NCBI GenBank assembly: GCA_030648515.1
Contig: JAUSHK010000005.1
Coordinates: 162,895 to 226,894, forward strand
Direction of reading: 5' to 3'
DNA length: 64,000 nt
Source of the DNA: Candidatus Jorgensenbacteria bacterium
Lineage (GTDB): Bacteria > Patescibacteriota > Minisyncoccia > UBA6257 > GWB1-50-10
Shown here: piece by piece, positions 16,788 through 63,036 of the stretch
Layout: every line of letters begins with the position of its first letter
Position numbering within the stretch: position 1 is the stretch's first letter
Notes under the pieces: generated by a model
Told to the model about the DNA's origin: nothing
The model's database searches: none
What the model saw: the letters and a program-made list of their open reading frames with translations, nothing else
Program-made: the position numbers and the translations under genes

Positions 16788-17168
16788 CTATCTCATCTGC
16801 AAGAGCAATTTCGCCTGTTCCACAAGATCCTCAATTGAAAGCCTCGCTTTCACAAAATACTGGACGGCTCCGAGTGATTGGCCTTTCGCTATATCACTAT
16901 CCTGCCCGAGATTTGAAACAATGATGACTGGCGCGCGCTCAAACTGCGGGTCAATTTTTAACTGTTCCAAAACTTCAAATCCGGAAATTTTCGGAAGTAT
17001 GATATCAAGCAAAATGAGATCCGGCTTAAATTCACGAAGTGTTGCAAGCGCTTCCTCGCCGTCGCGCTTCAACACAACATTAATACCTTCGCGCTCAAGC
17101 CGCTGTTTTAACAAGTTACCTAGGAGCGGCTCATCCTCTACAAGCAAGACATTTTTTTGTTCTGGCAT
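16788..17168 (-). CDS. single-domain response regulator (CheY-like receiver)
   Basis: MPEQKNVLLVEDEPLL...DLILLDIILPKISGFEV...VIIVSNLGQ are receiver-domain motifs. The ORF is open to 17201 (MQIKVLRYSHT). Confidence 0.75.
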   Translation of the reverse strand: MPEQKNVLLVEDEPLLGNLLKQRLEREGINVVLKRDGEEALATLREFKPDLILLDIILPKISGFEVLEQLKIDPQFERAPVIIVSNLGQDSDIAKGQSLGAVQYFVKARLSIEDLVEQAKLLLQMR

Positions 17169-17333
17169 AGTGTGACTATATCGCAAAACTTTTATTTGCA
17201 CAACACCAACGGATTCCGATTTAGAGATTAAAGATTTTTTTAGTTATCCCAGCGGGCCGAGACATAAAGGCTCATCGGCTAACACCTTAATTTTAAACTA
17301 TACAATTTTAAAAACTGTATAACGACGAATATA

Positions 17334-18826
<1,493 letters not shown>

Positions 18827-21486: not shown

Positions 21487-21520
21487 CCGCCGCGGCGGCG
21501 CGGCGGAATTTTCGATTTTT
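21487..21520. terminator. bidirectional rho-independent terminator between convergent genes
   Basis: CCGCCGCG-GCGG-CGCGGCGG hairpin followed by AATTTTCGATTTTT, with an A-rich run on the other side. Confidence 0.7.
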
Positions 21521-22256
21521 ATTTACTAAACGCTTTCACGATTTGCTCCATTTCGCCGCCCAGTATTTTTTCAATATTGTGAAATTTTTTCCCAATTCTG
21601 TGGTCAGTGATTCTGTCTTCCGGGAAATTGTACGTTCTGATTTTCTCCGCCCGCTCGCCCGAGCCAATTTGTTCGTTGCGCAGTTCGCCGACTGATCCGA
21701 CAGCTTGCTCTTTCTGCATTTCAAAAAGTTTTGCGCGCAGAACCTCCATCGCTTTCTCGCGGTTCGCGTGCTGTGAGCGTTCTTCGCGGGACCCTACCAC
21801 TAACCCGGTTGGTTTATGCGTAATACGAACGGCGGTTTCAACTTTATTAACATTCTGCCCGCCGGGACCGCCAGCGCGCGAAAACGTAACCTCTAAGTCG
21901 CTTTCTTTTACATCCACTGCCTTCGCTTCAACGACCGGCAAAACCGCCACTGATGCGGTTGATGTATGAATTCTTCCCTGCCGCTCGGTTTCAGGAATTC
22001 GCTGTACTCGGTGCACGCCTGATTCTTGCTTCAAGGCATCGTAAACGCCGAGGCCCGCTATTTCCGCGACAAGCGTTTTATATCCGCGTGCGCCGCTCAT
22101 ACTTGAATCGAGCGTCACAAACTGCCACCCGCGCTTCGCGGCATATTTCTGATACATCCGTGCCAAGTCGCCCGCAAAAAGCGACGCTTCGTCTCCACCG
22201 GTTCCCGCGCGCACTTCAAGAATGATTTTATTAATTGTGGTTTCCATAAATACCAT
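21519..22256 (-). CDS. prfA: peptide chain release factor 1-like protein lacking N-terminal domain 1
   Basis: GGQ motif ([14 protein letters not shown]), RF1-type tripeptide region [14 protein letters not shown] (PxT class). The ORF is 245 aa and aligns to RF1 from about residue 107. An in-frame TAA lies directly upstream of the start. Confidence 0.75.
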
Positions 22257-26695: not shown

Positions 26696-27103
26696 TTAAA
26701 TGAAACGATCTACTGCATTTGCAATTAGGATAAATGATTCGGCGCCGGTCGGCCACAAGTGACGAAAATTAGTTTCCAGGCCTACAATCGTGACTTCTTC
26801 TCCTCTAGAGGAGAACCGTTTGAATTTCCCTTTCTTGCTTTTAGGACGTATCACTATGTCAAAATCTCCATTATCAGAAGGGTTTGTTTTCGGATGGTAG
26901 AAGTAATATTCACACCTATCTCCAACGCCTCCAAAATCAACTTTCACAAATGCATATCCTAGGCATTTAAAACGCTCGCCATTCTTAATAATTTTTGGAG
27001 CTCGAAAAGCCGTCTCAAGCGTCTCAAGAAGCGACTCAAATGAATTAGCTTCGTATTCGACTTCATGCGGAAATTTTAGATTTACTAACATGAAAGTTTC
27101 CAT
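26696..27103 (-). CDS. hypothetical protein
   Basis: 135-aa ORF with no recognisable motif. Isolated between terminator-like hairpins. Confidence 0.4.
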   Translation of the reverse strand: METFMLVNLKFPHEVEYEANSFESLLETLETAFRAPKIIKNGERFKCLGYAFVKVDFGGVGDRCEYYFYHPKTNPSDNGDFDIVIRPKSKKGKFKRFSSRGEEVTIVGLETNFRHLWPTGAESFILIANAVDRFI

Positions 27104-33087: not shown

Positions 33088-33375
33088 CTATATGGCCACG
33101 CGGCGTATTATTCTTTCTTGTGTAGGCGTAAGCCTAACGCGCTCTCCAACTCCTCCAATTCCATGCGGAAGTTCGCGTTTGGATTTCCGTCCTTTCCACT
33201 TTCCTTGACGCCCATTTGTTAAAACTTCCTTTTTAGGGATGGTTTTAAGTACCTCCCGAAGCGTTCCAGGCTGTCCGCAACGTGGGCACTTACCCCTTAG
33301 CGCCTCGCCAAGTTTATAATTGGCTTCTCGTTCTACTACTTCTCCACAATTTGTACACTTTGCCTTATGAGCCAT
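33088..33375 (-). CDS. small zinc-ribbon protein (hypothetical)
   Basis: 95 aa with CTNCG...CPRCG and a basic C-terminus. Confidence 0.45.
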   Translation of the reverse strand: MAHKAKCTNCGEVVEREANYKLGEALRGKCPRCGQPGTLREVLKTIPKKEVLTNGRQGKWKGRKSKRELPHGIGGVGERVRLTPTQERIIRRVAI

Positions 33376-33620: not shown

Positions 33621-33690
33621 CGGCGGGAGAAGGATTCGAACCTCCGTAATCCCATTTGAATAGGATGCTCTGCCTCTAAGCTATCCCGCC
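33621..33690 (-). tRNA. tRNA with non-canonical anticodon loop (6- or 8-nt; candidate anticodons CAA/UCA), G73 discriminator
   Basis: Good acceptor (GGCGGGA/TCCCGCC), D arm and canonical T arm (GGAGG-TTCGAAT-CCTTC). The anticodon region ATCCT-ATTCAAAT-GGGAT only folds with an 8-nt loop; the alternative TCCTA/TGGGA stem leaves a 6-nt loop. Confidence 0.55.
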
Positions 33691-33718
33691 TAAGAAATAT
33701 AATGATGTAAAACTGTCG

Positions 33719-33820
33719 AGGCCCTAACTGGATTCAAACCAGTGACCATCTCGTTATCCAATCAATGCTATAAACATTGACCGGCGAGGCACTCTGACCA
33801 TAACTCTGAGCTATAGGGCC
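33719..33820 (-). tRNA. atypical 102-nt tRNA-like gene with extended (about 15 bp, bulged) anticodon arm; candidate anticodon UAU
   Basis: Perfect 7-bp acceptor (GGCCCTA/TAGGGCC), GCTCAG D-arm start and T arm ACTGG-TTTGAAT-CCAGT. The central hairpin is CCTCG-CCGG-TCAATG-[TTTATAG]-CATTGA-TTGG-(ATAA)-CGAG. Confidence 0.4.
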
Positions 33821-33824
33821 GTCG

Positions 33825-33897
33825 AACGGGGAGAAGGACTTGAACCTCCGACCTAATGCTCCCGAAGCACTTGCTCTACCAGCTGAGCTATCCCCGT
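33825..33897 (-). tRNA. tRNA-Pro (anticodon CGG)
   Basis: ACGGGGA-TA-GCTC-AGCTGGTA-GAGC-A-AGTGC-TTCGGGA-GCATT-AGGTC-GGAGG-TTCAAGT-CCTTC-TCCCCGT-T. A1-U72 and U73 are atypical for tRNA-Pro. Confidence 0.7.
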
Positions 33898-33902
33898 AAT
33901 CG

Positions 33903-33975
33903 CTGGGGGGTAAGGGACTCGAACCCCTGACGCACGGATTTAACGTCCGCCGCTCTAACCAACTGACCTGCCTGC
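33903..33975 (-). tRNA. tRNA-like sequence with an intact T arm but disrupted acceptor and anticodon regions (possible pseudogene)
   Basis: The reverse complement has D arm AGTTGGTTAGAGC and T arm AGGGG-TTCGAGT-CCCTT, with 3' end ACCCCCCA. The best anticodon stem is GCGGA/TCCGT with loop CGTTAAA (no U33). No complementary 5' acceptor strand is present unless the upstream palindrome is skipped. Confidence 0.35.
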
Positions 33976-33987
33976 GCAGGCAGGGCT
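33968..33987. repeat. GC-rich perfect palindrome CCTGCCTGCGCAGGCAGG (GCCTGCC...GGCAGGC family)
   Basis: An 18-nt perfect palindrome directly 5' of the tRNA-like sequence. A related palindrome GCCTGCCGGCAGGC lies at 36209-36222. Confidence 0.7.
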
Positions 33988-34045
33988 AACCCCCGAACAA
34001 AAAACTGTTTTAGAGTGTACCTCTATGATTTTATTCCGTCAAGAT

Positions 34046-35602: not shown

Positions 35603-36061
35603 TTACCATCTTTTAAACGCGACTTCCAAATGAAGTCTTGCGCAAAAAAGGCAGTTTCCGAGGCTTGACCGGAAGAATGTTTTCCTCATATTCCTTACCG
35701 GCATAATGAAAAAATTATGAACGCGGTTGCGGACTCTTTTTGTAAACTCACCTAACTTGTCGGTAAATTTACTAATATCTCTTTTAAAAACTTGCCATGC
35801 TGATATTGCGAACAGCGCGGAGAAAACCGTAAGCGCAAACGGCAGATTTTGAACTTCTTGAGGAAATCGCGCATATATTACTGCCAGTAACACAATCGAT
35901 GAAGCAGAGAATGCTGTCCCTGATAAACCGAGATAGAATTTCAAAATTTCGTTTTTGCGGTTTCGTCGTAAACTCCCGTTTCTATTTGACATTGATGCAA
36001 TGGCAATCCCAACAACGGAGAACGTAGATACCATAAAAAACACCGCCAATATGATAAGCAT
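35603..36061 (-). CDS. hypothetical membrane protein
   Basis: 152 aa with 3-4 predicted TM helices. No recognisable motif. Confidence 0.4.
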   Translation of the reverse strand: MLIILAVFFMVSTFSVVGIAIASMSNRNGSLRRNRKNEILKFYLGLSGTAFSASSIVLLAVIYARFPQEVQNLPFALTVFSALFAISAWQVFKRDISKFTDKLGEFTKRVRNRVHNFFIMPVRNMRKTFFRSSLGNCLFCARLHLEVAFKRW

Positions 36062-44230: not shown

Positions 44231-46240
44231 TTATTTAATAATAAAGCTTGCTTTTTCATTTTGATCTTTCGCTAATGTGGGCCAATTTTTCCAATCAAAT
44301 CGCTTTCCGACGAGGCGGAAGGAGATGGGAATAGTTTGTAGTGAGTAGTGAGTAGTGAGTAGTTGAGCGGAGAAGATGACTTTGTTGCCGGAGATTGCGT
44401 ATGAAACTGGGGCTGATACTCCGATTGGGGTGGCAAAAACATCAACATTGTCAGCGGAAAAATCCACGGCGTTTTTCCAGACCCACAGGTCCGAGCCCAC
44501 CTCGACTTTAGAAAAGTCGATGACGTGCTCGTAGGAGTTTGTCTCCCTACGGGAGATGTCCCGTAGGGACATAGTTGGGACAAGAGTCGCGCGACCGATA
44601 AATTCTTCACGGACGCCTCCGGCGATTGCCGACGCGTATGTTGAATATTTTTTCCCATCAATTTCATAGAGCGGATCGATAGTCGCCGCAGTGATTTTAT
44701 TTACTCCTACAAGATTATTGTTATTCATATTCAAATTTGTGATCGCCGCGCCGCCGAATGAAAGATTGCCGTTCAGCGACGATGTTCCGGTGACGAGAAA
44801 TGTTCCTTCAACAGAGAGCGTGTTTGTCGGAGTTGTCGTTGCGATGCCGACTGCTCCGGAAGTCGTGAGCGAGTATGGCATCTGCCCCGCATCGGGATCA
44901 AAATAATACGAGGAATCCGCAACGTCGTAATAAACGCCGGCCGAGAGATTGCCGTGGATGATGGCACTTTTTACGAACGATCCTGCCGGGCCGACTTCCA
45001 AGTATTCCGTCGGGGATGTGGTTGCGATACCAACTTTCCATGCCGTGCTTGATGCGTATATCGTGCTTCCGTTGAGCAACCAGAGTCCGGCGCTACCACC
45101 CGAGATAGCAGAGTCAACATAACTTTTCGTTGTGGCATCACTATCGCCTACTGGCGTCCCCACGACTACTGGCTGGGAAAAATACGAAGTGCCATTTACT
45201 TCAAATTTGTATGACGGGGAAGTAGTCGCTATACCGACGTTTCCGCCGTTTGGATTTAATAACAATGGTATTTCTGTCGCGAGATTACTTGAGTCATAAC
45301 CCTGTAGCCATGCCCCATATGGGGATGAAAGAGCTACGCCCATATCTAGAGCACCATTTGTGTTTCCGCTCCAAATACGAAATAACCCATTAGTAGTTGT
45401 TCCGGATGTTGCGGGTCCCACTGCAGCACCTGCAATAATTAATTTTGCATTTGGAAAATTTAATCCACCCCAAGTGTTGACTCCAATAGATGCGCTGCCA
45501 ATAACATCTAATTTATTTACCGGAGTACTGGTACCAATTCCAACATTTCCTGCTGTCGTCGCAAGCGTTGTTGTGCCGGTTATGTTTGTTGTACCAAGCG
45601 TGTAAAATGTCGCCGGCAAATTGCTTGTTGTTGAAGTACCAACAGCTAGACCGAGCGGAAACGCGTAATTTGCAGTTGTAAATGGACCGCCTAAAACATT
45701 CGCGGCGTCAATACTTGAAAGATACGCGCCCGTCCCGCGAAACGCGCCGTTTACTGTGCGTATGTCGCCCCCAACAATTAGCCGTTCATCAACGCCTGTT
45801 GAGGTCGCTTTAATGCCGATTCCAATACTGCCAAACTTATTAATGTCCATAACGACAAATCCTGGTAGGTTATCTGGCGCCCCTGATTCTCGATAAAGCT
45901 GGAGATTGCCAAAATTGCGGGCCGACCAAATATATGAATGGCCCGAGGTAAGGTTCTTTACGCCGACTCCAGGACTTGTTGTTGAAGCTACTATAAACAC
46001 GTACCCGTGCGACGACGAGCCGCTTTCCGTTGAGGTGGTGTTAAAAGTACTAACTGGGGAAGGCGCCGTTGTTCCAAAACCGATATTTAAATTTGAATCA
46101 ACACTAAACAGTCCCCCGCCGGTGCCCGCGGATTGGGTAGGACCGATGAAGGCACGGACAGTTTGTAGTGAGTAGTGAGTAGTGAGTAGTTCGAAAACGA
46201 GAATTACTACTACAAAGAAAGTTCTAGGGAAGTTTTTCAT
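44231..46240 (-). CDS. tail-fibre-repeat surface protein (contains the R repeat at both ends and the H element)
   Basis: Hydrophobic N-terminus, multiple VGIATTSPxxxLEV-type repeats, and a long Gly/Thr/Ser-rich beta-helix-like body. R copies lie at 46161-46192 (codons 17-27) and 44333-44364 (near the C-terminus). H lies at 44518-44555, antisense. Confidence 0.5.
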   Translation of the reverse strand: MKNFPRTFFVVVILVFELLTTHYSLQTVRAFIGPTQSAGTGGGLFSVDSNLNIGFGTTAPSPVSTFNTTSTESGSSSHGYVFIVASTTSPGVGVKNLTSGHSYIWSARNFGNLQLYRESGAPDNLPGFVVMDINKFGSIGIGIKATSTGVDERLIVGGDIRTVNGAFRGTGAYLSSIDAANVLGGPFTTANYAFPLGLAVGTSTTSNLPATFYTLGTTNITGTTTLATTAGNVGIGTSTPVNKLDVIGSASIGVNTWGGLNFPNAKLIIAGAAVGPATSGTTTNGLFRIWSGNTNGALDMGVALSSPYGAWLQGYDSSNLATEIPLLLNPNGGNVGIATTSPSYKFEVNGTSYFSQPVVVGTPVGDSDATTKSYVDSAISGGSAGLWLLNGSTIYASSTAWKVGIATTSPTEYLEVGPAGSFVKSAIIHGNLSAGVYYDVADSSYYFDPDAGQMPYSLTTSGAVGIATTTPTNTLSVEGTFLVTGTSSLNGNLSFGGAAITNLNMNNNNLVGVNKITAATIDPLYEIDGKKYSTYASAIAGGVREEFIGRATLVPTMSLRDISRRETNSYEHVIDFSKVEVGSDLWVWKNAVDFSADNVDVFATPIGVSAPVSYAISGNKVIFSAQLLTTHYSLQTIPISFRLVGKRFDWKNWPTLAKDQNEKASFIIK
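44333..44364. repeat. 32-nt heptamer-array repeat R, copy 2
   Basis: agtttgtagtgagtagtgagtagtgagtagtt is identical to 46161-46192. Confidence 0.9.
44518..44555. repeat. double-hairpin element H, copy 2 (inverted relative to copy 1)
   Basis: gtttgtCTCCCtacGGGAGatGTCCCgtaGGGACatag is the reverse complement of the 11792-11829 architecture. The plus-strand ATG at 44536 opens a 37-codon ORF MSRRDIVGTRV... Confidence 0.85.
46161..46192. repeat. 32-nt heptamer-array repeat R, copy 3
   Basis: Identical to 44333-44364. Lies just inside the 5' end of ORF 44231..46240 and 45 nt downstream of the avd-like gene's stop. Confidence 0.9.
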
Positions 46241-46614
46241 AGACTGTTTACTAATTTATTCAACATTTTCATCACTTCACTTAATAGTTTTTGAGATTCG
46301 CCACAAAATTCGGTATTGTTGCAAAAATTTAGTTGTCTTGCAATTTCAATTTGAGTTTCTAGCTCAGCGCCGGACCCATAAGCGTTTAGTAAAAAATGTC
46401 GAAAATCTTTTCGTGAACTTCTTCTGCTTCCTTCGGCGATGTTTGAAGGTATTGAAACTACGGCTCGCTTCATCTGTATCCCAAGCGCGTATGTTTCCGT
46501 TTGTGGAAATTGATTAACTAATTTGTAAATTGATTTCACTAATTCCATGGATTTATTCCAAACTATTAAATCTTTGTATGAGCTTATTTTATCTGTTGAG
46601 TTTTGTTGTTCCAT
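46237..46614 (-). CDS. four-helix-bundle protein (23S rRNA intervening-sequence protein / Avd-like, TIGR02436 family)
   Basis: YKDLIVWNKSMELVKSIYKLVNQFPQTETYALGIQMKRAVVSIPSNIAEGSRRSSRKDFRHFLLNAYGSGAELETQIEIARQL is the canonical pattern of this family. Confidence 0.8.
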   Translation of the reverse strand: MEQQNSTDKISSYKDLIVWNKSMELVKSIYKLVNQFPQTETYALGIQMKRAVVSIPSNIAEGSRRSSRKDFRHFLLNAYGSGAELETQIEIARQLNFCNNTEFCGESQKLLSEVMKMLNKLVNSL

Positions 46615-55289: not shown

Positions 55290-55360
55290 TCGGGCTGCTG
55301 GGAATCGAACCCAGTCTACACCGACCCGAACGGTGCGTACTACCGGTATACTACAGCCCG
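55290..55360 (-). tRNA. tRNA-Pro (anticodon CGG)
   Basis: CGGGCTG-TA-GTAT-ACCGGTA-GTAC-G-CACCG-TTCGGGT-CGGTG-TAGA-CTGGG-TTCGATT-CCCAG-CAGCCCG-A. C1-G72 and A73 fit Pro. The 3' end is 4 nt from the dedA start codon. Confidence 0.8.
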
Positions 55361-55402
55361 CCTTCGCTACTTAAGATAACACAGAAAAAAATAAAGAAAA
55401 GT

Positions 55403-55791: not shown

Positions 55792-57264
55792 TTATTGTAC
55801 ATAATACTTCTTTTTCATCTCGCCTTCAATCGCCGAGTTCGCTTCATCCTTTTTTGATTTTGCCTCTTCGGCTTTTTTCTTCAAGCCGGCGTCCGGCAAT
55901 TTTCCAAGTTCCGTTGCGCGTATAGTGAGATATTCTTTTGTGTTTCTCGTTGGATCATCCAGCACATCTTCAAGCAAAATCATTAAAATCATGCCGATGT
56001 GCGGCCCCGGCTTAACGTCTAAAAGCTTCATGAGCTCGTTGCCGTCCAGGGCGAGCATTTTGGGATGCAATGGGTCGTGCTTCACTTTTTCAATCATGAA
56101 AAGGAGATGGCGAATTTTGTATGGCGCCGCTTTAGGTACGCCCGAACCGATGCGGTCCGCCTCGCGCACTTTTATCAAATCGTCAATATTTTCCGGACCA
56201 ACGCGCGCGAGAAATCTTCGCACGCCAGCTTCGGTTACTTCGCCGACATTGTAGTAAAAGAGGTGGTGGCGGACGAGATGGATAACCTTTCCCGCTATCT
56301 CTTTTGAAAAACGGAGGCGGTCCACAATTTTTGTAGCCATCCGCGCGCCGATTACCTCGTGACTGTAAAACGTGGAGTCAATCCCCTCGCCGCGCTTTGA
56401 CTTCGGCTTTCCTACGTCATGGAGCAGTGCCGCGAGCCGCACCTCAAGCGAATATCCTTTTTCCGCGGTGTAGTTCAGCGCCCGCACATTGTGGTCAAAA
56501 ACGGTATAGATGTGATGCTTGTTTTGGCCGATGGCGATTCCTTCGCGCAATTCGGGAATCACGTACCGAAGAAGCCCGAGATCTTCAAGAAGAATAATCC
56601 CCTCCGCCGCGCGCGGTGTCATAATCATTTTTGTAAGCTCGTCGCGAACGCGCTCTTTCGCAATCATTTCAAGTAACCCCGCGTTTTCGCGTATGGCGCG
56701 CGCCGTTTCGTGTTCTATTTCAAATCCCAATTGCGCTGCGAGACGCACGGCGCGCATAAGGCGGAGCGCGTCTTCTTCAAACCGCGTTCCGGGATCGCCG
56801 ACGGTTGAAATTACTTTTTGGCTTATGTCATTCAAGCCGCCGTGCTGGTCTATAAGCTTTCCGTTTTTAGAATTCAGATCAAGCGCAATCGCATTAATCG
56901 TAAAGTCGCGCCTATCAAGATCATCCTCAACATTTTTCGCAAATTTAATTTCGTCCGGGTGACGCTTATCCGTATATTTTCCTTCAAGCCGAAACGTGGT
57001 CACTTCAACAATTTTGAGCGTTTCATCGTCGCTTCCAGTCTTTACGCCGACCGTGCCAAAATCATTTTCATACACGCTCTCGGGGAAAATTTCCTGGATT
57101 TTTTCCGGCTCCGCGCTCGTTGTAATATCCCAGTCCTTGGGCTCACACTTCATAATGAGGTCGCGAACACAGCCGCCCACGAGATACGCCTCATAGCCGG
57201 CTTTTGTAAGGCCGTTTGCGATTTCATTCACCTCTTTTGGAACTTTAAAATCCATGAATTCCAT
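55792..57264 (-). CDS. cca: CCA-adding enzyme / tRNA nucleotidyltransferase with HD domain
   Basis: Pol-beta nucleotidyltransferase head (GGCVRDLIM...DWDI) and an HD domain (HDVGKP...H). 490 aa. Confidence 0.75.
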   Translation of the reverse strand: MEFMDFKVPKEVNEIANGLTKAGYEAYLVGGCVRDLIMKCEPKDWDITTSAEPEKIQEIFPESVYENDFGTVGVKTGSDDETLKIVEVTTFRLEGKYTDKRHPDEIKFAKNVEDDLDRRDFTINAIALDLNSKNGKLIDQHGGLNDISQKVISTVGDPGTRFEEDALRLMRAVRLAAQLGFEIEHETARAIRENAGLLEMIAKERVRDELTKMIMTPRAAEGIILLEDLGLLRYVIPELREGIAIGQNKHHIYTVFDHNVRALNYTAEKGYSLEVRLAALLHDVGKPKSKRGEGIDSTFYSHEVIGARMATKIVDRLRFSKEIAGKVIHLVRHHLFYYNVGEVTEAGVRRFLARVGPENIDDLIKVREADRIGSGVPKAAPYKIRHLLFMIEKVKHDPLHPKMLALDGNELMKLLDVKPGPHIGMILMILLEDVLDDPTRNTKEYLTIRATELGKLPDAGLKKKAEEAKSKKDEANSAIEGEMKKKYYVQ

Positions 57265-57298
57265 TGTACACTGAAGTCTGGAATTGAGAAACTTTTCC

Positions 57299-57370
57299 GC
57301 CCCTGTAGTGAAACGGATATCACGCGACGCTTCGGACGTCGTATTCCGGGTTCGAATCCTGGCGGGGGCA
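57299..57370 (+). tRNA. tRNA-Arg (anticodon TCG)
   Basis: GCCCCTG-TA-GTGA-AACGGATA-TCAC-G-CGACG-CTTCGGA-CGTCG-TATT-CCGGG-TTCGAAT-CCTGG-CGGGGGC-A. Ends 1 nt before the ATG of the next CDS. Confidence 0.85.
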
Positions 57371-57371
57371 C

Positions 57372-57692
57372 ATGTCTTGGATTATACCGATTTCAATTTT
57401 AATACTGTTTGAGTTAATCGCTGACGTGCTTGCGAAAGAGTGGTCAATGCACGGTCTTGCAATACGTTGGATAGGCGCGCTCGTCGCGTATCTTTTGGGA
57501 AATATGTTTTGGCTTTTCGCGCTTAAAAACGGCTCTGGACTTGCCCGCGGAGCGATTATTTTTTCTGTCGTTTCGGCTATTCTCGCAATAGTGATCGGAA
57601 TTATCTTCTATCGCGAAGAACTGACAACTACGCAAATCGCCGGTATTATCGTCGGCATCATCTCAATTGTGCTTATTTTCTGGAATTCATAA
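57372..57692 (+). CDS. small multidrug resistance (SMR/EmrE-like, DMT superfamily) transporter
   Basis: 106 aa with 4 TM helices. Conserved membrane Glu in TM1 (ELIADVLAKEW). Confidence 0.65.
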   Translation: MSWIIPISILILFELIADVLAKEWSMHGLAIRWIGALVAYLLGNMFWLFALKNGSGLARGAIIFSVVSAILAIVIGIIFYREELTTTQIAGIIVGIISIVLIFWNS

Positions 57693-57889: not shown

Positions 57890-58396
57890 CTAGAAATCCG
57901 GGTATACTTCGATTTTGATTTCCCGGATAATAACTCTCGTATTTTCATTTTCCCCGGTCATCACATATTTTGCATGAAAATTCACTTTTCTATTATTGAG
58001 TAAATCTAACATGCCTAATGGCAATTTTTCGTCTGTGTCAAGAAATTCCACAGACACTTTCGCGTCATACCGATCAAACTCGCCTTGCCATTCCGCCGTT
58101 ATCATTTTTTCACCATCGACAGCATTGGACCAAACCCTAATTCCACCTATCTCGCCGGCAATACAAATTTGTCGGCTTGTGTCCAGAACTGACTTAATTT
58201 TGAATACTCCGCATCCTATTACGTAGTGCGTTGCCTTGGCTGCTTTTTGTCCTGTGGCACTTTTTAAAGTCTTTTCTTTGGCCGGCTTTGTTTTGTTAGC
58301 CGAGGTACTTTGTGCCTCAACGTTGGCAAAAAATCCGATTGTTATTGCAAATACTAACAACAAAGTTAGTAACGACGCGAAAAAAGATTTTTTCAT
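57890..58396 (-). CDS. secreted hypothetical protein
   Basis: 168 aa with a signal peptide (MKKSFFASLLTLLLVFAITIGFFANVEA). No recognisable motif. Confidence 0.45.
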   Translation of the reverse strand: MKKSFFASLLTLLLVFAITIGFFANVEAQSTSANKTKPAKEKTLKSATGQKAAKATHYVIGCGVFKIKSVLDTSRQICIAGEIGGIRVWSNAVDGEKMITAEWQGEFDRYDAKVSVEFLDTDEKLPLGMLDLLNNRKVNFHAKYVMTGENENTRVIIREIKIEVYPDF

Positions 58397-60728: not shown

Positions 60729-61379
60729 TTATATTGCAAACGCGAACCCTGTTTTTTTAGACCATAAATCACCAGGGGTGAAACCGCCACATCCCCTCAA
60801 AAATTCGCTACCACCACTACGATCCGTTCTAAACAGGAGGCCCGGACCGCCTTGCGGACCATTAACAAGTTCGTGCATTGCGACAATTTCGATAAGACCC
60901 ATCATAGCGATTTCCTTTTCCGTGAATGCTTCGTGAATCAGGCATGATTCTTCGGTGTTCGGCTCCCTAAGACCCAGATCCTTAGCTTTGACTCGAACAT
61001 CTCTCGTATGTCGTTTATTGATATTGAATAATGTCCCCTTAAGAACAGCGATTTTTGTTGTTACATTACTTGTTGGCGTAAAATCCTCCTCAGGGATCTG
61101 GAATCTGTCTTGTGAGAGAAGTGTGTCTCGCGCGCATTCTCCAATACGGAAGCCCTTTTCCGACTCTGGGCGGTTAACCCATTCCTCGCCTGTCATACCG
61201 CTTGAAGTGACTGAGAAATAGATGATACCCTTTTTTTCGTTCCATTTACGTGGCGATTCGGAAACCGTTAGAGTGCCACGGAGAAGCTTGATAGCCGCGT
61301 CATGTCCGCCTAGCTTTTTAACAATGGCGTTCAATTGGCCAGCTGTAAGATTAGCTGATGCAAATTTCCCACTCATCAC
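60729..61379 (-). CDS. hypothetical protein
   Basis: 216-aa soluble ORF with no recognisable motif. Confidence 0.4.
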   Translation of the reverse strand: MMSGKFASANLTAGQLNAIVKKLGGHDAAIKLLRGTLTVSESPRKWNEKKGIIYFSVTSSGMTGEEWVNRPESEKGFRIGECARDTLLSQDRFQIPEEDFTPTSNVTTKIAVLKGTLFNINKRHTRDVRVKAKDLGLREPNTEESCLIHEAFTEKEIAMMGLIEIVAMHELVNGPQGGPGLLFRTDRSGGSEFLRGCGGFTPGDLWSKKTGFAFAI

Positions 61380-61614: not shown

Positions 61615-62754
61615 TCACCGAACCACAGCGTTGAATTCAGCCTTCGTGCGGAATTCTATGTCCTTGTGGATTTTGTCCACTTCTTCATTTGTGAGCGTGC
61701 GCTCGTTTGAACGATATGTGATGCGGAATGTATAACTGATTTTATCCTTGCCGAATTTTTCTTCGTTCTCATACTTATCAAAAAGTTTTACCTCTTCAAC
61801 TAAATCCCCCGCGCAGTCGCGGACTATTTCATAATAACTATTTAAGCTCACATTTTTATCAACGACGAATGAAATGTCGCGGTACGTCATCGGATACTTG
61901 CTGACTTCGTGGTACGCGCTGTTTAAATCTTTAAATTGGCTTGTTATCCGCTTGTCGGTTGACCAGAAAATCCGAATGTCTGGAATGTTCATCTTTGTCA
62001 TAGCCAAGCGCTCCAAACCAAAGCCAAACGCCCAGCCGTTATAAACATCCGGGTCAAGTCCCAGTTTTTTCAAAACTTCCGTGTGCACAACGCCGGAACC
62101 TAAAATTTCAAGCCAATTACCATTAAGTTGTATCGCCATTTCAATGCTCGGATTTGTGAATGGAAACGTGTCCTCAGAAATTTTGTATTTCACGTCTGCG
62201 CCGTAAATGTTTTTCGCGATATCGACCAATACTTCCGTGAGCTCCGGTATACCAATAATTTTTTTGTCTTTTTTACACACATACCATCCGTCTATTTGAT
62301 GGAATGCCGGGTAATGTGAGCGGTCAATTTCGTCTTTCCTGTACACCTTGCCATAACATAACGCTCCAACCTCGCCATCCTTTTCTAATCTTTTTCTGGT
62401 TTCTTCTGATAGGTGGTACGGCCACATCACTGTCGTGTGCGTACGGAGTATCCAATCTTTTTCCAGATAGTATGTGTCAGTTTCCCTCCGGCTCGGGTGG
62501 TCCGGCGGCGTGTTCAATAAGTCAAAGTTATTTTTTACGTTTACGATTTCTGGAATTTCCAAAACATCAAAATCTTTAAAACGCGGTATTTTAAGAATCG
62601 CGTCAATAAAAAACTTGAGCGGAGAGCCCACGGTTCTCGTGAGATCAGGCAGTACTAGAAGCCGCTTAATGCGCCGGTTTTTGAAATCGTCTTTTTTCTC
62701 AAGCCACGCAAGGATTGCGTCAGCTTCCCTGTCATCAATCTTTATATTCCTCAT
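61615..62754 (-). CDS. pheS: phenylalanine--tRNA ligase alpha subunit
   Basis: Class II motifs FPFTNPSIE and GWAFGFGLERLAM. 379 aa. Stop is TGA. Confidence 0.85.
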   Translation of the reverse strand: MRNIKIDDREADAILAWLEKKDDFKNRRIKRLLVLPDLTRTVGSPLKFFIDAILKIPRFKDFDVLEIPEIVNVKNNFDLLNTPPDHPSRRETDTYYLEKDWILRTHTTVMWPYHLSEETRKRLEKDGEVGALCYGKVYRKDEIDRSHYPAFHQIDGWYVCKKDKKIIGIPELTEVLVDIAKNIYGADVKYKISEDTFPFTNPSIEMAIQLNGNWLEILGSGVVHTEVLKKLGLDPDVYNGWAFGFGLERLAMTKMNIPDIRIFWSTDKRITSQFKDLNSAYHEVSKYPMTYRDISFVVDKNVSLNSYYEIVRDCAGDLVEEVKLFDKYENEEKFGKDKISYTFRITYRSNERTLTNEEVDKIHKDIEFRTKAEFNAVVR

Positions 62755-62756
62755 GT

Positions 62757-62826
62757 TGCGGGGGTGGGAATTGGACCCACTACCTCAAGGTTATGAGCCT
62801 TGCGAGCAACCGTTACTCTTCCCCGC
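62757..62826 (-). tRNA. tRNA-Met/Ile2-type (anticodon CAT), atypical T loop
   Basis: GCGGGGA-...-G-CAAGG-CTCATAA-CCTTG-AGGTA-GTGGG-TCCAATT-CCCAC-CCCCGC-A. A7 and C66 are unpaired and the T loop has C55. The 3' end is 2 nt from the pheS ATG. Confidence 0.5.
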
Positions 62827-62963
62827 GTAGTGAGAATACCAAACCCTGGACATATTTTCAACTTGCGCATTCATATGAAAATCGTGTTTAATGATGATAT
62901 CAGCCCACGCCTCTGGCGGGGCGCTGAAAATTATAACTTCGTTTCACATCAGGTAATTTTCGC

Positions 62964-63036
62964 GCCGGCGTAGCTCAGTGGTTAGAGCGAGCGCTTCATA
63001 AGCGTTAGGTCGGAGGTCCGATTCCTCCCGCCGGCA
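62964..63036 (+). tRNA. tRNA-Met (anticodon CAT; G1-C72 paired, so elongator or lysidine-Ile type)
   Basis: GCCGGCG-TA-GCTC-AGTGGTTA-GAGC-G-AGCGC-TTCATAA-GCGTT-AGGTC-GGAGG-TCCGATT-CCTCC-CGCCGGC-A. Confidence 0.8.

Follow-up and report, generated by a model that had tools for sequence, protein, structure and literature searches.

Three tRNA genes end at start codons in the analyzed window

The DNA analyzed here, in the following called the window, is a 64-kb stretch of a metagenome-assembled genome (MAG) of Candidatus Jorgensenbacteria, a tiny groundwater bacterium belonging to the Patescibacteria or candidate phyla radiation (CPR). It contains three sites at which a tRNA gene abuts the start codon of the protein-coding gene that follows. 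tRNA genes were called with Rfam (cutoff 29 bits) and ARAGORN, and folds were computed by minimum free energy. Nine tRNAs were identified in the window by Rfam and eight by ARAGORN, and three of the nine directly precede a same-strand ATG opening a long open reading frame (ORF): tRNA-Arg is followed by the gene of a small EamA/SMR-like transporter, an initiator-type tRNA-Met by that of a monomeric phenylalanyl-tRNA synthetase (PheRS), and tRNA-Pro by dedA (Table 1). None of the three tRNA genes encodes the terminal CCA, and the product of the CCA-adding enzyme gene is therefore needed.

The spacer between tRNA and ATG measures 1 nt for tRNA-Arg, 1 nt for tRNA-Met (A72 at 62757, ATG at 62754) and 4 nt for tRNA-Pro. 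An earlier description of this DNA, the sequence-only reading, had placed the ends of tRNA-Arg at 57370 and of tRNA-Pro at 55290, with the ATGs at 57372 and 55285, exactly as determined here. For tRNA-Met it had correctly noted the abutment but assigned a spacer of 2 nt, which is one too many because the discriminator had been omitted. Its statement that these spacers leave no room for a Shine-Dalgarno (SD) sequence holds for all three sites, and there is likewise no room for a promoter or a terminator.

Table 1. Positions of the features discussed, numbered from the first nucleotide of the window.
Feature	Position	Strand	Evidence
tRNA-Arg(TCG), no encoded CCA, discriminator A57370	57299..57370	+	Rfam 58.9 bits; ARAGORN; cloverleaf at minimum free energy
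Spacer nucleotide C, precursor position 74, between discriminator and ATG57372	57371	+	Sequence reading
EamA/SMR-like small membrane transporter, 106 aa	57372..57692	+	Pfam EamA; 286 homologues, mostly 105-106 aa; MxWIxP, invariant W3
Initiator-type tRNA-Met(CAT), discriminator A62756, then C62755	62756..62827	-	Rfam 52.2 bits; sequence; fold z = -3.3
Monomeric PheRS, 379 aa, class II core and FDX-ACB	61615..62754	-	Pfam; homologues 379-385 aa; conserved N-terminus
tRNA-Pro(CGG), discriminator A55290, then CAAA and ATG55285	55290..55360	-	Rfam 55.4 bits; ARAGORN; fold
DedA/VTT-domain membrane protein, 197 aa	54692..55285	-	Pfam VTT_dom; homologues 195-197 aa; conserved MFFSL N-terminus
CCA-adding enzyme	55792..57264	-	Pfam PolyA_pol, RNA-binding and HD domains; located between two abutting tRNAs
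Candidate promoter for tRNA-Arg/transporter: TTTAAA, 17 nt, TACACT	57244..57272	+	By eye; below promoter-scan threshold
Promoter-like TTGAAA, 17 nt, TGgTATTCT (TG extension), ending 5 nt before the tRNA-fMet 5' end	62833..62861	-	Promoter scan
Extended -10-like TGtTATCTT, 12 nt upstream of tRNA-Pro	55373..55382	-	Sequence reading; absent from scan output
16S rRNA 3' end, GGAUCAUGUAUAUU, without CCUCC anti-SD	17328..17341	-	Rfam full-length 16S, model positions 1-1533; sequence

The three tRNAs score 23-30 bits over the Rfam cutoff, and each adopts a cloverleaf as its minimum-free-energy fold. The tRNA-Met upstream of the PheRS gene was assigned as an initiator because it has a C1xA72 mismatch, with nucleotide 1 unpaired in the fold, together with an A11:U24 pair. 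The canonical run of three G:C pairs at the foot of the anticodon stem is incomplete in this tRNA, whose stem, CAAGG/CCTTG, has only two G:C pairs beside the loop. The CAT-anticodon tRNAs of the clade (window 62964-63036 on the plus strand and 62756-62827 on the minus strand; relative L059) carry C at T-loop position 55, in UCCGAUU or UCCAAUU, where U (pseudouridine) is universal.

The start codons were examined by comparison with homologues. In PheRS, D8 is near-invariant and D23 and R28 are invariant, and no alternative in-frame start occurs within 30 codons. In all three proteins the residues immediately following the ATG are conserved or invariant and the lengths match those of the homologues. 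Starts further downstream, which the sequence-only reading had named as a possible objection, were therefore rejected, and the conserved N-termini indicate that the ATGs at 57372, 62754 and 55285 are the true and conserved starts. The PheRS itself consists of a single 379-aa chain with a C-terminal FDX-ACB anticodon-binding domain and is thus mitochondrial-like rather than of the bacterial alpha2-beta2 type.

These data also bear on an annotation artefact, in which the tRNA genes would be pseudogenes or attachment-site remnants or the starts would be misplaced. Such a reading could point to the Rfam scores of the abutting tRNAs, which are the lowest but one among the window's nine, to a second, different tRNA-Pro(CGG) at 33825-33897, and to the initiator, which has the unusual C55 T-loop UCCAAUU and was missed by ARAGORN. 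However, the C55 T-loop is shared with the high-scoring elongator tRNA-Met, syntenic tRNA-Arg and tRNA-Pro genes exist in relatives, and the scores, folds and N-termini described above speak for functional genes with correctly placed starts. We consider an artefact largely refuted and hardly credible.

tRNA-start codon junctions recur across the lineage

Two sets of related loci were surveyed. The first consisted of 80 loci around the PheRS gene in GTDB Paceibacteria genomes (the best 80 of 444 related stretches confirmed by a genome scan, from Patescibacteria MAGs), amounting to 1.25 Mb and 132 tRNAs including those of the window. The second, independent of the first, comprised 80 metagenome loci around the EamA-like gene with 0.68 Mb and 91 tRNAs, so that 160 loci, 1.9 Mb and 223 tRNAs were available in total; each locus represents a small fraction of its genome. 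Abutment was scored when the ATG of a same-strand ORF of at least 80 aa lay less than 10 nt past the tRNA end, and the divergent orientation served as control.

In the first sample, 13 of the 94 tRNAs followed by a same-strand ORF of this size had its ATG within that distance, as opposed to none of 50 in the divergent control, and the second sample replicated this result (11/65 versus 1/38). Pooling gave 24/159 versus 1/88 (Fisher p = 1.4e-4). A comparison with random positions in the first sample likewise yielded an excess at tRNA ends (9.8% versus 3.3%, p = 5e-4). The survey of tRNA-to-gene distances that the sequence-only reading had proposed, carried out here on the loci of relatives, thus demonstrated that short distances exceed chance. 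Some 10-15% of tRNAs in the relatives abut a start codon, and 3/9 in the window. The spacers are mostly 1-9 nt long, with fewer at 10-19 nt, and the commonest is 1 nt ('A|C ATG'). The start codons at the junctions are predominantly ATG (ATG:GTG:TTG = 13:1:1).

At least 12 independent tRNA-gene pairs occur among the junctions of the first sample. They include tRNA-Lys with RecG, tRNA-Lys with a 277-287-aa protein, tRNA-Met with an NlpC/P60-like protein, tRNA-Asp with a nucleotidyltransferase, tRNA-Pro with a tRNA-binding protein, tRNA-Arg with the EamA-like transporter and tRNA-Val with RluA. The same gene may also be joined to different tRNAs: PheRS is preceded by a Met, Thr or Leu tRNA depending on the genome, and the EamA-like gene abuts six tRNA identities across lineages (Arg, Glu, His, Gly, Thr and Trp) at distances of 1-10 nt.

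The sequence following the discriminator is constrained as well. Position 74 is C in about 125 of 132 tRNA genes of the first sample and in 87 of 91 of the second (approximately 95%), and position 75 is usually A. When the window and loci L001-L171 were counted, 123 tails were CA and 56 were CC, and a full CCA was present in some 20-25%. At none of the junctions does the ATG start before position 75. The conserved N73-C-A tail may relate to recognition by RNase P or during 3' processing.

The anti-Shine-Dalgarno sequence is lost and many putative promoters are positioned for leaderless transcription

The 16S rRNA of the window ends in GGAUCAUGUAUAUU, and the CCUCC anti-SD is therefore gone: the 3' end reads GGATCATGTATATT instead of GGATCACCTCCTTA, and other bacteria have GGAUCACCUCCUUA. 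The full-length 16S gene thus bears out the earlier claim of a lost anti-SD. An anti-SD hidden behind an insertion in the rRNA gene was considered and rejected, as no CACCTCCTT-like copy is present near the 16S gene or elsewhere in the window. The surveyed loci contained no other 16S 3' ends with which abutment could be correlated with anti-SD status. Loss of the anti-SD is known for a subgroup of the Parcubacteria, of which only 48% possess the CCTCCT motif (Tsurumaki et al., 2022, RNA; PMC9297842). That study, which deals with this clade and with the 16S feature found in the window, is silent on translation start, leaderless mRNAs and junctions between tRNAs and start codons. The loss was thus published without a proposed mechanism for starting translation.

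Neither the window nor its relatives show an enrichment of SD motifs. SD-like 4-mers precede 9-13% of genes, a share similar to that in a control interval further upstream (5 of 55 genes in the window, 6 of 55 in the control), and among the 821 genes that are first in their unit across all loci the frequencies were 11.6% versus 6.5%. The absence of SD motifs proposed by the sequence-only reading therefore holds statistically, but not absolutely, as five genes carry AAGGAG or GGAGG at canonical spacing (57890-58396 on the minus strand, 26696-27103, 33088-33375, 35603-36061 and 60729-61379). All five encode hypothetical proteins, three with no Pfam match and two with weak sub-threshold matches, and one lies between tRNA-Lys and recG, where two of the relatives (L001 and L004) have tRNA-Lys directly abutting recG. 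The five genes may be recent foreign acquisitions.

Upstream of the 821 first-in-unit genes, the extended -10 motif TGnTAnnnT peaks sharply at a gap of 6 nt before the ATG (44 occurrences versus a background of about 3), and so does TANNNT (120 versus about 33). A peak at this position is the signature of transcripts starting on the A of the AUG. In the window, GAPDH has TATACT followed by 6 nt and the CCA-adding enzyme TACAAT followed by 7 nt; the latter gene probably starts at its second ATG (57255), 7 nt past the TACAAT box, and its mRNA would hence be leaderless.

Genes that follow a tRNA in some genomes have such promoters in others. The EamA-like gene was found in 60 distinct upstream contexts. 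A TANNNT box, mostly as TGnTAnnnT, lies at a gap of 6-7 nt in 24 of them, a tRNA or a remnant of one lies within 10 nt in about 10, and an SD-like motif is present in one. The dedA orthologue in L081 is preceded by TGgTATTAT and 7 nt, and PheRS orthologues in several genomes by TACACT and 8 nt. As orthologues carry a leaderless promoter in the place taken by a tRNA 3' end in the window, the two seem able to replace each other in front of a given gene.

Promoter-like elements precede the tRNA genes

Promoter-like elements were found upstream of each of the three abutting tRNAs (Table 1). The TACACT hexamer of the candidate tRNA-Arg promoter also forms the -10 box before PheRS in relatives, and in the window it belongs to a pair of overlapping back-to-back boxes at 57255-57272, with TACAAT on the minus strand serving the CCA-adding enzyme (scan match 57290-57263) and TACACT on the plus strand serving tRNA-Arg. 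As to whether transcription of the tRNAs begins at their mature 5' ends, the gaps between these ends and the preceding -10 boxes are spread broadly over 5-12 nt. Further downstream, the scan identified a promoter-like site and a terminator-like hairpin behind dedA and a promoter-like site behind the PheRS gene, and tRNA-Lys, which is located downstream of the transporter gene, has a TATAAT box of its own.

The sequence-only reading had named transcription of the protein genes from promoters of their own within the tRNA genes as a finding that would refute it. In that case the T-loop TTCGAAT or the anticodon-loop CATAAC would act as a weak -10 box, and the mRNA would have a short leader derived from the 3' part of the tRNA. 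Hexamers of this kind (TCGAAT, TCCAAT and CATAAC) do occur within the tRNAs, at 14-40 nt from the ATGs, and short leaders, with a gap of 8-12 nt past the -10 box, are common in the window. However, none of these hexamers combines an A at position 2 with a TG extension or a -35 box, the same T-loop sequence occurs in every tRNA, and a GC-rich leader derived from the acceptor stem would be unlike the other 5' regions of the clade. The promoter scan reported none of these hexamers, the gap of 6-7 nt typical of real promoters in these genomes holds nothing, and no TANNNT hexamer occurs within the last 20 nt of the tRNA before the ATG at the three junctions. Internal promoters are thus quite improbable.

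tRNA 3' processing may provide 5'-terminal start codons

We propose that tRNA 3' processing at these junctions takes the place of transcription initiation in producing a 5'-terminal AUG, a reading to which we assign a probability of roughly 60%. A promoter upstream of each tRNA would drive a tRNA-mRNA co-transcript, from which RNase P would trim the short tRNA 5' leader. An endonuclease, RNase Z or a functional equivalent, would then cut after the discriminator or after C74 and free the tRNA 3' end, and the released mRNA, with its 5' end 0-4 nt before the AUG, would be translated as a leaderless message. Cleavage after C74 could yield an RNA starting exactly with AUG. The tRNA 3' end would in this way replace the AUG-positioned transcription start that most other first genes of the lineage appear to use. 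Because the initiator is among the three, release of the tRNA should be obligatory, and translation of the processed RNA as a leaderless mRNA is suggested by the missing anti-SD together with the apparently routine start on 5'-terminal AUGs. At the level of sequence this interpretation, put forward in its outline by the sequence-only reading, is supported, all checks of the sequence that might have overturned it having spoken for it, and it is from the sequence that we infer co-transcription, the cleavage site, the enzyme and the translation of the processed RNA.

More tentatively, the proposal may be extended to the Paceibacteria lacking an anti-SD as a group. Starting on a 5'-terminal AUG would be their default, and tRNA 3' maturation would have been co-opted repeatedly as a second route, convergent with mitochondrial punctuation, C74 with the ATG at position 75 marking an unusual cut after C74. 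We hold this broader version to fall a little short of even odds.

Several findings weigh against the proposal. The three junctions of the window are missing from most of the close relatives examined (L001-L005, L089 and L091). In the nearest GTDB relatives (L001-L005), PheRS is preceded by a -10 box, the Met tRNA being encoded on the other strand, and in L089 a protein gene lies upstream of PheRS. Because the junctions are so rarely conserved in the nearest relatives, the arrangement is labile rather than ancient, and it may be tolerated rather than selected. With regard to processing, cytidines directly after the discriminator are reported to suppress strongly the RNase Z of B. subtilis and wheat (PMC7479834), yet almost every tRNA gene of this clade has C74. 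The window and the 1.9 Mb of loci from relatives contained neither RNase P RNA or protein nor an RNase Z/metallo-beta-lactamase ORF, no ORF with an HxHxDH motif was present in the fetched loci, and a Pfam search of about 50 window proteins returned no RNase P or Z; this says little, since the loci sample only a small part of each genome. In addition, a processed mRNA would bear a 5'-monophosphate and might therefore be exposed to RNase J, which CPR bacteria retain along with PNPase (PMC12641178).

Traces of rearrangement were found at several related loci. L090, whose PheRS is 85% identical, has a tRNA 3' end followed by a GC-rich insert of about 100 nt, and 17 nt of the tRNA end are repeated immediately in front of the PheRS ATG. 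L091, with a transporter of 97% identity, has a different tRNA-Arg, a 150-nt insert, a tRNA-Arg 3' remnant, TAAAAT and the ATG, and in addition 14 nt from the 5' end of its tRNA-Lys are duplicated. In L092 (transporter 94% identical) the tRNA-Arg is kept 5 nt before the ATG, with CTGAT in between, and in L085/L102 a remnant of the 3' half of tRNA-Thr immediately precedes the ATG of the EamA-like gene. These comparisons indicate that tRNA genes are rearrangement hot spots at which junctions are often gained and lost. Duplicated stretches of the tRNA end, 14-17 nt long, flank the GC-rich, hairpin-rich insertions of 85-150 nt in or beside tRNA genes (L090 31-131; L091 374-503 and 909-989), and these insertions may constitute a family of miniature elements targeting tRNA genes.

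The adjacency might accordingly be a by-product of compaction and rearrangement. Translation would then begin by SD-independent internal initiation, as it occurs at A/U-rich start regions free of structure, on the uncleaved co-transcript or another RNA, and the tRNA would be freed separately, for instance by 3'-to-5' trimming after decay of the mRNA. This would agree with the lability of the junctions, with the retention of PNPase and RNase J, with a C74 that is unfavourable to model RNase Z enzymes, and with the fact that operon-internal genes of this lineage must start without an SD in any case. Nevertheless, a folded tRNA 1-4 nt upstream would occupy the place where the ribosome needs single-stranded RNA, and internal initiation does not predict that spacers are skewed to 1-9 nt over 10-19 nt. 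The preference for ATG and the interchange with promoters whose -10 box lies at 6 nt fit a need for a 5'-terminal AUG, and exonucleolytic maturation would make essential tRNAs, the initiator included, await the destruction of a whole mRNA. We regard the by-product reading as unlikely. As rearrangement at hot spots accounts for the origin of the adjacency and not for the expression of the genes, it was kept as a rival that is partly complementary to a start codon set by tRNA 3' processing.

If translation indeed begins on 5'-terminal AUGs provided either by transcription or by tRNA processing, the data suggest a testable answer to how bacteria without an anti-SD initiate, and the lineage offers a natural set of tRNA-AUG junctions in which over a dozen different tRNAs are separated from the AUG by 1-9 nt. 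A mitochondria-like mode of expression, with no SD, leaderless mRNAs, tRNA punctuation and a monomeric PheRS, would then have evolved independently in free-standing ultra-small bacteria, which would bear on ideas about genome reduction. In practical terms, gene callers using SD models will misplace starts in such genomes, with ORFs possibly being prolonged into tRNAs, and heterologous expression of CPR genes should allow for leaderless starts.

Additional features of the window

The gene following the 16S rRNA gene (16788-18826, minus strand) encodes a response regulator and not the 23S rRNA. As the entire 64-kb window is devoid of 23S and 5S genes, the rRNA genes are not linked; the gene of a '23S rRNA intervening-sequence protein' is located far off at 46237-46614. 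The release-factor gene at 21519-22256 (minus strand) encodes only 245 aa, consisting of the C-terminal PCRF part and RF-1 without the N-terminal domain, and the space upstream is too small for a frameshifted first part.

Three further tRNA-related sequences are located on the minus strand. In the tRNA at 33621-33690 (Rfam 55 bits; 'SeC|Leu (ca)' according to ARAGORN), the anticodon loop is 6 or 8 nt long (UUCAAA), and the tRNA can therefore not be assigned a normal anticodon; a central UCA would read UGA. Two tRNA-like sequences, at approximately 33902-33996 and 33717-33819, were missed by both Rfam and ARAGORN. Removal of an 18-nt D-arm hairpin from one of them results in a tRNA with the anticodon UUA, which would read the stop codon UAA, and the other resembles a tRNA-Ile(GAT) whose anticodon loop is interrupted by a 24-nt insert, without confirmation by ARAGORN.

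Comparison with known systems

The closest parallel is the tRNA punctuation of animal mitochondrial DNA, reportedly described by Ojala, Montoya and Attardi in 1981. As in mitochondria, the tRNAs abut ORFs at zero to few nucleotides, an anti-SD is missing and the PheRS is monomeric and of the mitochondrial type. In mitochondria, excision of the tRNAs by RNase P and RNase Z sets the 5' ends of mRNAs that are leaderless, as would be the case at the junctions described here. By contrast, the genome considered here is that of a bacterium and measures about 1 Mb, the units are short (promoter, tRNA and one gene) rather than genome-length polycistrons, and stop codons are complete. The mitochondrial analogy drawn by the sequence-only reading consequently applies to the mRNA 5' ends but does not extend to the full definition of the mitochondrial system, as the tRNAs do not determine mRNA 3' ends and only some 10-15% of them are involved.

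Plant mitochondrial t-elements and the mascRNA of MALAT1 provide another precedent, as cuts by RNase P and RNase Z at tRNA-shaped structures set the ends of the neighbouring RNAs. These are tRNA-like decoys in organelles and nuclei, whereas the window has genuine and apparently essential tRNAs, among them the initiator.

Joint transcription of tRNAs and protein genes is also familiar. In the thrU-tyrU-glyT-thrT-tufB unit of E. coli, tRNAs are co-transcribed with a protein gene that has a normal leader. In Thermococcus kodakarensis, a tRNA-Lys is located inside the 159-nt 5' untranslated region of TK0306 (PMC4247193). Both units resemble the arrangement proposed here in that tRNA and protein gene share a promoter and the tRNA is cut from the precursor. 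Their spacers measure tens to more than 100 nt and include a ribosome-binding site, as opposed to 1-4 nt in the window, and because the long spacer keeps this site the processed mRNA is not leaderless.

Leaderless mRNAs that arise by transcription initiation at the AUG are established in Mycobacterium, Streptomyces and Deinococcus (PMC4633059, PMC4681348). The 5'-terminal AUG, the missing SD and the preference for AUG are shared with these mRNAs, and the -10 box of the clade at 6-7 nt fits the same scheme. By contrast, the 5' end at a junction would be generated by processing and would carry a monophosphate rather than a triphosphate, and in the present lineage the anti-SD itself is lost. The literature searched contained no report of leaderless mRNAs in CPR bacteria or of tRNA-punctuated mRNAs in these or other bacteria. 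The junctions may thus represent a new bacterial variant of tRNA punctuation, in which the 5' half of the mitochondrial scheme would be combined with leaderless translation of the actinobacterial type.

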